Both the position numbers and the translations under genes were made by a program. The notes below the pieces were generated by a model. That model searched no databases and was not told the DNA's origin. It saw only the letters and a program-made list of their open reading frames with translations. 64,000 nucleotides of DNA from Schmidtea polychroa (lineage: Eukaryota): contig CM097885.1 in assembly GCA_044892525.1 (NCBI GenBank), positions 22,322,001-22,386,000 on the forward strand, given 5' to 3'. Shown one piece after another: positions 2 through 14,859 of this stretch; positions within the stretch are counted from its first letter, which is position 1; every line of letters begins with the position of its first letter.

Positions 2-3000
2 CTCTACCACCTCGTATTCTTCTAGATTCAGATTCTCTGTTGGAATACCGTATTCAAATTTTTCCACTTTGGGCCATTTTCTTTGGTTTCTCGGTTTTTG
101 TTTACATCTTTTGGTGGTTCTTATCCACTGAATCATTGCTAACGCTATTATCGTGCTTACTATCGCGCTAGTTATCCATATCATCTTTGTGATGATCGTT
201 GTTCCATTATTTGTTTTTTCTGTCGTTAATATTGTACTACCTGTGGTATTTGTTTCTGGTGCTTTGATTTTCTTGAATGCTTGATGTAATCGTTCCTTCT
301 CTTTTTCTGTTAGGTGACTGTGATTTTCCCGTTTCTCTCCCCCTTCTTGATCTCGGGGTATCCACGGTATGTTTATTAATTGGGGTTTTTGTCGAGTTAT
401 TGGTTGACATACGCTGGTTCCTCTTCCTTTCTTAAGGATACATACTTGGTATCGTTCTTTCCGTTTCCCTGTCTCCATTTTAACGTCTGTACCTTTGTCT
501 ATCGGTGTTGTTGTACAGTCGATTATTCCCGTCTTATCCATTACACATATCCTTATGATTGGTTCTCCTTCCTGGTTTTTGACTGTAATTACCTCTTCAC
601 CTTTCTTGTTGAGGTTAATAGTTATCTGCACTTCCCGTCTTTCGTCTTTAATTACTTCGTTAATCCATGTTGTTGTTGTTATTAATTCGGTTTGATTTTG
701 CTCTGTTGTTGTTTTTGTACTAACTGATTTGTTTGGCTTCTTGGTTGTTATCCCCCTCAATGGATCTTGTTTCATTGCCATACTCTTTGGCTTGTCTTTT
801 CTTGGTGCAGTTCTTGTTCCTTTACATACTACTATCCCTTGTGTTCCTGCGCATACCACAGTAGGGGTATTTGGTTTGACCTCTCCCCAGAAGAATTTGT
901 GGTCTTGTGTCATATCAGTTATTATGCATATGTCTCTGTCTTCTCTGATGCATACATGTGTAATTGATCGACTCCCTTTATCTTCTATTTCGATACCTTC
1001 TTCCAAAATGTTGAGTTGAAAATGTACTCCGGTTTCGTTGGCTCTTTCTAGCTCCATTTCCTCTGTTGATATGTCTCTACAGATGTCATAATCTCCACAT
1101 AGCCTGGGATCTCTTTTTTGGCTGCTAAAAATCTTTCCTTTTGTTATCGATCTGAAATCACAACTTACTCCTGTTCCTTCCATTAGTTGCACGCATATTC
1201 CGACGGCATTTCCGTCGTAATCACTGACTTTTATCATAAATACTTCACCTTCTTGGGAAGCTTCTCTTACGATTCTCATATTTTTTGTTTCTGTTAAACA
1301 GATGGATGTTAATATTATAAATATTCTTTGTAGTAGGATTGGCTGGATTTGATTTCGACACACTATGCTATGTAGTGGGGACTTTCGTTTTTTGTTCTCC
1401 GTTTTGTCGAATCCTTGATCTTCACCTCGACATTGGTCTTCTTCGTCTTCTTCCAATTCCTCATCATCACTCGTTGTTTCTCCGCCTTCCGGATTCTGTT
1501 CTCTGTCGTTTTCCTCTGGGTTGTTATCGTTATCCCCCATCCTTTCGTCGTCGTCGTCGTCGTCATTCCTCTCACCCGGGGTTTTCCTGAAAATGTCGTC
1601 CTCGACATTTGCTGCTTTGATCATCTCCTCGTATTTTTTAATTATCTCTTTTTTGTCGTTGTGGATACTTTCTCGTTCTTCTTTGGTTCCTTGATATTTC
1701 CGTTGTTTCCGGTGCCATTCCCACACTAGTATTTCTAGTTGCTTTTTCATCGCATGTGTTTTTGTGCATTCCCACCAATTACCTGTCAATTCTGTTCTAT
1801 TTCTCTGTAATATTGCTTTAATGGTTTTTGGCATTGGTGGTCTTGAGTATATGGCGCTTCTTAGTACGATATTTTCGTTGTTTTGGAATTGATTTATATC
1901 AATTACTTCCGCTCTTAATTCGTTTTGTTTCCATTTGATTAATATTGCTGCGGTTCTGTCTAAGTTTCCTCTGATGGCTTCCAGAATTGGTTCAATGCTC
2001 TGTCCCAACACCTCGGCTTCTTCGGTTGTTGCATTTCCTGTGATAAAGTTCACTATACTAGGTCTTTTTGACCTGACGGCATAACGTAATACGGTTCGTT
2101 GTTTGTTGTCTTTTTCTTTCAGCGTGGATCCCGTTCTTAATAATTCTCTGAGTACATCTCTTGACGCGCCTATTGCTATGGCTTTCATCAGTGGAGTTTT
2201 TCCTTTACTGTTTTTGACGTTTGTTGATTGTTTGCAGTTTTCCATTATTCGTATAATCTCTAAAGCTCGTTTTTCTTGTCCTGCTTTCACTGCATGATGG
2301 ATTGGCCAGTTATTACTCAAATCACTTGTTAGGAACATGATTGGTAATCTCCGGATTAGTTCATATATTTGAGTCGGTATTTGTAATCCTTCGGCATATC
2401 TTCGTCCTTTCGCATATCTTTCTGCTACTAACATTAGTTTGCCCAATACTTGGTATTTATTGGTTATATCGGCCCATTCTGGTACAATTTCTCGTGCTAT
2501 TTTTATTGTCATATTCCATGTTGCTTGGCTCCTTGCCATTGCGTCAGCTTCGCTTTCTGCTTCAGTTCCTTTATGGGCGCTGCTGCTTGTTTCTCCTCTC
2601 AACATGAATATTCGTCTTGTCTGTGATCTAGTTAATCTACCGCTTACTTCTGGTTCCGTTGTGGCATTTGTTTGTGATCTCGTGATTATCCTTCTTGTTT
2701 CTGGGTCTTTAGTGGCAGTTTTCGCTACTGCTTTGCATCGACATGTATTCACATAAATGGGTCTAATTAGTGGATTGTTAACCAACTTCACTCTAGCGTT
2801 GTTCTCGTTTACATAGATGATTTCATATGGCCCTCTGCCATTACGTTGTAATTTCTTTGCTGTTCCTGGGATTAATTCGGGTGTTTCTATAATAACCCAA
2901 TCTCCGATTTTAAATTGATGGTTTTGCACGTTCTTCTTTTTATCATGTAATTCCTTATAACTCTCTTGGTTGAATCGGATGTTCATCCCTGCGGTTTTCC

Positions 3001-13915: not shown

Positions 13916-14859
13916 TATTTCTTGACACAAAATTGTTATATTGGTTGACTCTGAACTATTTCCTTCCTCGTCTGATGATTCAATGTCACTTATCGGATCT
14001 AGTTCGGTTCGTTTAAGATCGTCGCTGTTCTCAAATTCGTTTGTTAAACTGTCTGATTCAAATACTGTTTCTACTGATGCTGGCTTCCTGTGTAGTTTTC
14101 TGTTGGTCTTGGCCTTTTGTATCTCTTCCTTTTCCAATAAACTGAGGTTTCCTTTACTTTTTCGCCTCGTTCGGTTAGCTATGCTATCAATTTTTCCTCC
14201 TTTTAATATCCTTTGATAAATTTTCTACTTTGTCAATCGAGCTCGATGTTTTCTAAGTATTTTTCTCGCTTTAATCTTTACGATTCTCTAACTCTTCTTG
14301 GATTTGGTTTTATTAATTTCCTTGATTCTTCGCTTCTAATTGATTTCTCTATATCTCTTGATTTCTATTGCTTTCTTGATTTCTTTGATTTCTTTCTGAA
14401 TTGTTTGCTTTATTCTAAAATAATTAACACCTCTAGTACATATCATAAATTCTCTTTATTAAACCCTTCATTTACTTTCCCTTTTCCCTTTATTTTACTG
14501 TCCCTTCGCTTCAAATTTTCTAGCTTTTCTACACTTCTCGCTATTCGCCCCATTTTGATTTTAAGTTGATTTTAAATTATCTATAACTCGTATCAATTAT
14601 CTATATAGTCGTATCAATTATCTATCCCTTTTATTATTATCATAGAAATATAATATTAATCACATAAATATCAAAATAAACATATCATTAATAAATAAAA
14701 TTCAATAATTCAACTACTATCTATTCGTTCGCTTTTCCCCATCCAAAAACTGGTTTAATTTTCGCTTGCGCCGGCGCTTTATCATAATTCTCCTCTACTC
14801 ATTACATATTTATCGCACTTAATCTATTTCAGTTTAATCAATTTCATAGTTAATCATTG

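Follow-up and report, generated by a model that had tools for sequence, protein, structure and literature searches.

A complete Burro-type Ty3/gypsy retroelement of Schmidtea polychroa with a 4,791-codon reading frame and a predicted C-terminal membrane module

The Burro elements of the planarian Schmidtea mediterranea have internal regions of up to 25 kb, total lengths of more than 30 kb and thousands of copies (PMC6431247). Burro-1/GYPSM1 (Jurka 2007; Grohme et al. 2018) was summarised by Arkhipova & Yushenova 2019 (PMC6431247), in whose description open reading frame 1 (ORF1) encodes 4,873 amino acids (aa) with retrotrans_gag and three CCHC motifs, AIR1, Smc, MATH_TRAF_C, BCL2, protease (PR), reverse transcriptase (RT), RNase H (RH), integrase (IN), ankyrin (ANK) and BIR. 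A Ubi2/SUMO-like motif is placed between MATH and BCL2, a dUTPase-like motif between PR and RT, and an envelope gene (env) with mononegavirus-like matches in frame between gag and pol (PMC6431247). The same authors proposed that Burro-like elements may be integrated proviruses that interfere with apoptosis and ubiquitination (PMC6431247). Li et al. 2021 (PMC8532177) described BURRO1 as an active element of high abundance, with enrichment in the intestine. Here, a giant retroelement at the left end of a 64,000-nucleotide stretch of the Schmidtea polychroa genome (assembly GCA_044892525.1, contig CM097885.1, positions 22,322,001 to 22,386,000; hereafter the window) was analyzed and compared with these and other described systems.

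Drosophila gypsy and the errantiviruses are Metaviridae that are infectious through env, which in them is a separate spliced 3' ORF of baculovirus-F type. Tf1 of fission yeast has a single gag-pol ORF without env or cargo. The polyproteins of flaviviruses and bunyaviruses are polytopic precursors, processed by signal peptidase together with a protease of the virus, and are analogues, not relatives, of the element studied here. Anakin of mosquitoes, a BEL/Pao element that captured a chuvirus glycoprotein, is by its published description likewise a long terminal repeat (LTR) retroelement with a glycoprotein of the Monjiviricetes kind, but it belongs to another superfamily and occurs in arthropods (Dezordi et al. 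2020, PMC7642597; PMC10084718).

Coordinates are given as window positions (1 to 64,000), and negative numbers are bases to the left of window position 1. All features of the element lie on the minus strand. A stop-to-edge open frame of 4,741 codons (2..14224) was the sole ORF of such scale in the region. The initial annotation had described it as a giant frame running off the window, which is what was found: after the left flank from the same assembly had been added, ORF1 ended at -148 (L012 position 852), with 4,791 codons from stop to stop and 4,688 aa from the first Met at residue 104. At 39% GC, a frame as long as this cannot have stayed open by chance. The leftward extension also reached the 3' LTR (-12394..-7615, locus L010; 4,780 bp), the twin of the 5' LTR (17803..22584; 4,782 bp, TG...CA termini). 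BLASTN aligned the two in a single match of 4,782 columns (99.96%) that has 2 gap openings but no mismatch, and a 4-bp target duplication, ATAG, was present on both outer LTR flanks. The LTR match, the TG...CA ends and the flanking ATAG therefore delimit an element of 34,979 bp (-12394..22584) with a 25,417-bp internal region, the 5' two-thirds of which lies at window 1-22584. With 4.8-kb LTRs that carry no substitution between them, the element inserted very recently. A primer-binding-site-like 19-mer (17776..17794), read directly, begins with TGG 8 nt past the 5' LTR and looks complementary to a tRNA-like 3' end (...CCA).

The order of modules in ORF1 was Gag with three CCHC knuckles, two ubiquitin-like (Ubl) candidates, MATH, a third Ubl candidate, a Bcl-2-like region, a signal-Env-transmembrane (TM) block, PR-RT-RH-IN, ANK, and a final block of signal-like segment, ectodomain, TM and tail. 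The TG..CA LTRs, the target duplication, the PR-RT-RH-IN order and an RT nearest to Ty3 among solved structures are features of Ty3/gypsy elements. The 25,417-bp internal region and total length of 34,979 bp, three CCHC motifs, MATH, in-frame env, pol, ANK and BIR are features of Burro, to which the weakly supported Ubl and BCL2-like regions may be added. By description, the element resembles Burro-1 as a giant gypsy-like element with about 25 kb of internal sequence, more than 30 kb in total, many copies, accessory ORFs and a BIR elsewhere in the element; its ORF1 likewise joins Gag, three CCHC, MATH, SUMO-like and BCL2-like regions, in-frame env, PR, RT, RH, IN and ankyrin. On these sequence features it is almost certainly a complete Ty3/gypsy (Metaviridae) LTR retroelement of the published giant Burro group of dugesiid planarians, most like Burro-1/GYPSM1. 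A new overall architecture, which the initial annotation had suggested, can no longer be claimed, because the same architecture, with env in frame between gag and pol, has already been described for Burro-1/GYPSM1 (PMC6431247). The architecture as a whole is known, and the present locus is a well-documented intact copy.

Less in keeping with Burro-1 itself is the length of ORF1, 4,873 aa in the published description as against 4,791 codons from stop to stop (4,688 from the ATG) here; the element may therefore be another numbered Burro family or subfamily. The account of Burro-1 has one Ubl, whereas three candidates are present here. The Burro-like element of Dugesia (Girardia) tigrina is also described as joining Gag, env and pol in a giant polyprotein read from one frame, but its ORF1 has 5,140 aa, two CCHC motifs and a midasin-like region, and its MATH lies in an upstream accessory ORF, whereas three CCHC motifs and a MATH inside ORF1 were found here (PMC6431247).

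The assembly (781 Mb, four chromosome-scale contigs) contains many copies. A 2-kb pol probe gave 1,190 candidates in the genome, and all 40 that were scored round to 100% identity. A 502-aa query from the C-terminal module gave 587 candidates, and all 85 that were scored, own copy included, were 99-100% identical. The frame was exactly 4,791 codons in 53 of the 85 (one of the 53 was flagged with two TAG codons inside the match), at least 4,735 codons in 66 and shorter in 19, and the 4,791-codon copies were spread over four chromosomes and several small contigs. Since the same frame is found in many copies, the cargo is a property of the family and not of one locus. The element family has been active very recently, and the earlier description of a giant, intact, recently active Ty3/gypsy element whose gag, cargo, env, pol, ANK and C-terminal membrane module are joined in one polyprotein was borne out by the LTRs, the frame and the copies.

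The domain order that had been read from the letters held, its softer items weakly. Pfam recovered CCHC, MATH, Env, RT, RH, IN and ANK, whereas PR stayed under the cut-offs and the three Ubl and the Bcl-2 assignments are weakly held. The Gag region (12845..13915, first ATG at 13913-13915) matched zf-CCHC (E 5.8e-10), and a motif scan placed three zinc knuckles (C-x2-C-x4-H-x4-C) at residues 371, 390 and 418 (12923-13129). The MATH (TRAF-C) domain (residues 1183-1327, 10244..10678; PF22486, E 4.5e-29, 101.8 bits) stands by itself in ORF1. PR (residues 2704-2797, 5834..6115) was assigned from matches below the Pfam cut-offs (gag-asp_proteas E 1.4e-4, RVP E 7e-4). RT and RH (residues 3019-3177 and 3240-3369, 4118..5170) matched RVT_1 (E 6.8e-35) and RT_RNaseH (E 2.5e-38), and their closest solved structures were those of Ty3 (4ol8, E 1.6e-89; 7q5b, 2.5e-89), with retroviral RTs at 1e-32 or weaker. 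IN (residues 3478-3667, 3224..3793) comprised an H2C2 zinc finger (Integrase_H2C2, E 1.7e-20) and an rve core (E 3.8e-12). The ankyrin repeats (residues 3975-4062, 2039..2302) matched Ank_2 over the cut-off (E 7e-8). A two-family profile of the region between PR and RT matched RT N-termini only and did not confirm the dUTPase-like motif published for Burro-1.

The three Ubl candidates lie at residues 794-868 (11621..11845), 964-1055 (11060..11335) and 1451-1525 (9650..9874). Each had a weak or candidate match to a Ubl profile; the second also had a match to OTU1_UBXL (E 0.02), and the third is at the site of the published SUMO-like motif. A profile of four candidate Ubl segments reached ubiquitin at E 0.006 and ISG15 at E 0.02-0.04, which together made up 8 of 12 PDB matches, all weak. 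An S-G-G (residues 1056-1058, 11051-11059) directly follows candidate 2, like the C-terminal di-glycine of ubiquitin-type proteins, and may be a coincidence; the other candidates have no terminal S-G-G. The putative Bcl-2-like domain (about residues 1740-1880, 8585..9007) includes a GGW at residue 1844, and this GGW or W..GGW stretch we take to be the BH2-type motif of Bcl-2 proteins. A search with this element alone gave Bcl-xL at E 2.2, and the 60 highest-ranking of 115 PDB matches to a three-family profile, built from the stretch that precedes Env, were all Bcl-2 or Bcl-xL (E about 1e-3), aligned over GGW. Pfam on this copy matched neither ubiquitin nor Bcl-2.

Env follows the Bcl-2-like region. 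A predicted internal signal peptide (residues 1889-1909, 8498..8560), whose n-region is basic and whose -3 and -1 residues are small, precedes an ectodomain (residues 1910-2469, 6818..8497) that matched the Monjiviricetes-type fusion glycoprotein PF24664 (Monjiviricetes_fusion) at E 8.6e-68 and 229 bits (cut-off 27). The ectodomain has 14 Cys and one N-x-S/T sequon in about 600 residues. It is closed by a TM anchor (residues 2470-2492, core 2470-2488; 6749..6817; Kyte-Doolittle 2.53) with a basic cytosolic flank after it. A scan of Env for an R-x-K/R-R site found none, which would fit a fusogen independent of furin priming. No relatives of Env were found by word-based search at E <= 1e-5 or by phmmer against PDB.

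The C-terminal membrane module lies after ANK. A hydropathy scan of the 4,791 residues gave exactly three strong hydrophobic segments, 2470-2488, 4293-4311 and 4681-4699; the Env signal is shorter. The last two bracket the module: a second signal-like segment (residues 4293-4311, 1292..1348; Kyte-Doolittle 1.69) that is a predicted helix with a basic stretch before it, a second ectodomain (residues 4312-4680, 185..1291) with 12 Cys and Thr-rich linkers, a second TM anchor (residues 4681-4703, 116-184; Kyte-Doolittle 1.94) with a basic stop-transfer flank, and an 88-aa cytosolic tail (window 1..115 and onward to -148) that ends ORF1. Sequons (N-x-S/T) numbered 6 in the 381 aa between the C-terminal hydrophobic segments, as against 8 in 1,796 aa and 8 in 1,691 aa of the predicted cytosolic parts. 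Residues 4527-4621 (362-646) form an Ig-like beta-sandwich in the predicted structure, the usable part of which is model residues 240-333 only. By these features the module appears to be a real type-I membrane module. This upholds the earlier call of a second glycoprotein as far as a type-I membrane module is concerned; the module looks more like an Ig-like/beta-sandwich surface protein than like a second fusogen. Its most likely role, stated with low confidence, would be that of a surface attachment or host-interaction protein.

Searches for homologues of the module gave one match with HMMER over 1.84 billion representatives, to a repetitive protein (E 6.4e-6) and apparently spurious, no usable match in the ESM Atlas, and nothing over the Pfam cut-offs. 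Foldseek matches in BFVD had TM-scores near 0.1 and were discarded, and an internal duplication of the ectodomain was not significant (BLASTP E 0.22). The module is absent from the description of Burro-1 given in the passages on that element in PMC6431247, and literature searches on Burro/GYPSM1 returned no description of it. Judged from the sequence, the module and the topological argument given below are possibly new.

A genome search with PF24664 gave 2,580 candidates, and no frame among the 68 scored exceeded 3,361 codons; the scored candidates therefore belong to families other than that of the present element. Two copies of one of them, family A (L013-L015, G000:C2:156711238-156721239, minus strand, and L016-L018), had ORFs of 3,334 and 3,361 codons. 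The order in family A was Gag/CCHC, Ubl, Bcl-2, signal, Env, TM, PR, RT, RH, IN, signal-like segment, ectodomain, TM and a short tail, without MATH and without ANK. Families A and C/D thus share with the present element the one-frame order Gag-Ubl-Bcl2-[SP-Env-TM]-PR-RT-RH-IN-[SP-ectodomain-TM] (SP, signal peptide), but with an ORF of 3,334-3,361 aa and with neither MATH nor ANK; they may be Burro-2 to -4. Family A is 44% identical to the present ORF in pol and 33% in env, and the two Env proteins have the mature N-terminal motif (F/L)xxYDC in common. The Gag regions are 21% identical, that of family A matching Retrotrans_gag, and the PR-homologous region of family A attains the Pfam cut-off. 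The family A Env matched PF24664 with 314 bits; its Ubl (PF00240, E 0.0027) and Bcl-2 (PF00452, E 0.057, 14.4 bits against a cut-off of 31.4; WIANNGGW) matches were below the cut-offs.

The family A module comes directly after IN and has a clear signal-like segment, a 320-aa beta-rich ectodomain and a TM. The third family (C/D) is about 50% identical to family A overall and 37-40% identical in the module. Its copy D (L022-L024, G000:C52, combined coordinates 13576-17874, minus strand) has lost RT, RNase H and IN but keeps Env, the C-terminal module and some of the cargo in one intact 1,433-codon frame, and is a candidate non-autonomous derivative that retains both surface proteins. The signal-Env-TM...signal-ectodomain-TM layout thus recurs in families A and C/D. 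An fn3/cytokine-receptor-like type-I protein was considered for the family A module; Atlas scores of 0.84-0.88 lie under the 0.9 level and make this a lead only.

Selection was followed in family A and in the present element's family. Between the two family A copies (dS 0.07-0.12), the ratio of non-synonymous to synonymous substitution rates (dN/dS) was 0.02 in gag, 0.24 in cargo, 0.07 in env, 0.06 in pol and 0.15 in the C-terminal module; at the last value, the module of family A is under purifying selection. For the present element's family, contigs of the public run X1 were compared over the 40 best supported of 419 differences. Of these 40, 39 fell within ORF1, 25 of them synonymous and 14 not, and 10 of the 12 listed for the C-terminal module were synonymous.

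A Burro element is very probably the best overall explanation of the locus, and its expression through a polytopic precursor, which is about as likely as not, would run as follows. LTR-driven genomic RNA would be translated from the gag ATG into one precursor of about 4,690 aa. Gag and the host-derived cargo (three Ubl, MATH, Bcl-2-like) would be made in the cytosol, and the hydrophobic segment after the Bcl-2-like domain would act as an internal signal that sends the Env ectodomain into the lumen of the endoplasmic reticulum (ER), with signal peptidase cutting behind it. The Env TM would stop transfer, so that PR-RT-RH-IN-ANK stay cytosolic and are freed by the element's own protease. The second signal-like segment would restart translocation, and the Ig-like ectodomain would be anchored by the last TM. 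The mononegavirus-type Env would provide for enveloped particles and cell-to-cell spread. In the cell that makes the particles, apoptosis and ubiquitin/TRAF signalling would be kept in check by the cargo and by the accessory ORFs of RING, TRAF-like and IAP-like type. ORF1 would in this respect work like the polytopic polyproteins of flaviviruses and bunyaviruses.

Threading through the ER as one polyprotein agrees with the sequence. Each of the four candidate membrane crossings has basic residues on the predicted cytosolic side (positive-inside rule), and the signal segments have signal-peptide-like n, h and c regions with -3/-1 residues compatible with signal peptidase. In family A, no Met lies shortly before the hydrophobic core of either the Env signal or the C-terminal signal, Met being present inside the core only; these signals would thus lack a start codon of their own, which favours translation within the precursor. 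The Env signal starts 20 residues after GGW in family A, with a spacing of 45 residues in the present element's family. The tail anchor of Bcl-xL lies at about the same distance from GGW as the start of the family A Env signal.

Several points weigh against the precursor and its modules. An output of Gag, Env and Pol at 1:1:1 is uncommon among retroelements. In the present element's family the first residue of the Env signal is a Met (residue 1889), an arrangement that a spliced env mRNA would fit as well. The hydrophobicity of the second signal-like segment is no more than moderate (Kyte-Doolittle 1.69), with R and Q among its residues. The AlphaFold models are poor overall, with pLDDT 46 for the present module and 39 for that of family A, the latter being unusable. 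The present module has no detectable homology to the A/D module (hhalign probability 0.5%). The Ubl and Bcl-2 assignments rest weakly on E-values of 1e-3 to 4e-2. Finally, a comparison of the module among 12 near-identical copies, the lowest-scoring of the 85, gave 46 variant sites with 22 synonymous and 24 non-synonymous changes and no stop; constraint among these copies is mild, as expected where much variation arose after insertion.

For the expression of ORF1 taken by itself, the single polytopic precursor is placed first on sequence features, a finely balanced judgement, with splicing second. In the splicing model, which is possible but clearly less probable, no single chain is made from the fused frame. 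As in retroviruses, Env, and possibly the C-terminal module too, would come from separate spliced subgenomic RNAs, env might be left out of a gag-pol form, and the frame would be continuous as a side effect of splicing in frame from the start of gag. The Met at residue 1889 suits it; spliced RNA is the source of Env in retroviruses and errantiviruses, and particle formation requires an excess of Gag. Against this, the family A signals have no Met just upstream of the core, no junction interrupts the frame in three families whose identity is 33-53%, and single-ORF Ty3/gypsy elements such as Tf1 exist. Splice joints were sought in Logan contigs of four public runs, none recorded as RNA. The joints found there were single-contig, with sides of 21-29 nt and non-canonical ends, and the lack of a recurrent splice form does not speak for or against splicing or expression.

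It is improbable that the C-terminal module is not luminal. In that case residues 4293-4311 would be no signal, and residues 4312-4680 would be cytosolic and held by the TM at 4681-4703, for example tethering IN-ANK or the precursor to assembly sites. The weak hydrophobicity of the segment and its R and Q would agree with this, but the 12 Cys, the Thr-rich linkers and the 6 sequons in 381 aa, the beta-rich model with an Ig-like sandwich, and basic flanking residues as expected for type-I topology argue against it, as do families A and D, which have clearer signal-like segments at the same place (AIMLMLVTVASG, IMLLNVLGTNAG) and many sequons. A chimeric assembly, or a nested insertion found at this locus only, has practically no chance of explaining the giant frame, being refuted by the exact 4,791-codon frame in 53 of 85 copies (at least 4,735 codons in 66), with one coherent element bracketed by the LTR pair and target duplication and contigs of the four public runs covering 30/30 bins (X9 and X12), 29/30 (X1) and 25/30 (X2).

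A wider proposal built on the polytopic precursor is offered tentatively, and we consider it doubtful as a whole. Burro-type elements would encode, as the last module of the precursor, a conserved and selected second type-I membrane protein (Ig/fn3-like) that is swapped for non-homologous versions between families. The Env signal would be placed where cellular Bcl-2 has its tail anchor, and ORF1 would form a four-pass, flavivirus-like polyprotein. After the cut by signal peptidase, Gag-cargo-Bcl-2 would stay anchored in the membrane next to the site of budding, and the role of the second surface protein would be to attach to the host or to manipulate it. If true, four-pass polytopic expression would be a strategy not described for any reverse-transcribing element.

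The element has further ORFs outside ORF1. Upstream of it, a 160-aa ORF (16598..17077) encodes a C3HC4 RING finger of IAP type (PF13920, E 4.9e-12). Downstream, family matches identified a TRAF-like ORF with zf-TRAF and MATH (L009:7734-9194, window -2266..-806) and an IAP-like ORF with BIR and RING (L009:6415-7590, window -3585..-2410). The two RING fingers are 36% identical, and the MATH domains of ORF1 and of the TRAF-like ORF 34%. Four further accessory ORFs (153-533 codons) had no family match over the cut-off. Two open frames lie within the LTR (18204-18680, 159 codons, and 18884-19294, 137 codons; minus strand) and hence occur twice per element; neither had a family match over the cut-off. 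The coding strand over window 1-20000 is strongly A-rich (plus-strand AT skew -0.13 to -0.46), and GC there is about 39-40%, as against 22-33% in the genomic surroundings. Towards the outside of the LTR, at 20-22.6 kb, GC falls to host-like values and short tandem repeats occur.

To the right of the element, the minus strand carries an ORF with an rve integrase and chromodomain (28097-29284) and an ORF with a poxvirus-A32-like packaging ATPase (29823-30491), a gene content that appears Maverick/Polinton-like. At 33975-34720, stretches of 260-346 bp are 86-99% identical, in inverted orientation, to sequence on the other side of the Burro element (L010, window -14594..-15880). From this gene content and the flank matches, the Burro element may be nested inside such an element. 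A 154-codon plus-strand frame (30522-30986) has one TATA-binding-protein repeat (PF00352, E 1.5e-15) and may be a gene fragment or part of a neighbouring mobile element. An 883-codon minus-strand frame (39167-41818) with DUF4371 and a hAT dimerisation domain encodes a hAT-type transposase.

For genome annotation, 14-kb frames of this kind, of which there are hundreds of intact copies, should be labelled Burro ORF1 instead of being presented as novel. As an unannotated predicted surface protein, the C-terminal module is a candidate factor for attachment or for interaction with the host. In three divergent families, two ectodomains, each bracketed by a predicted signal and a TM, are kept in frame with gag-pol, and the copies of family A are under purifying selection. 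With two such ectodomains kept in three families, the proposal that Burro elements are enveloped and possibly infectious becomes directly testable.

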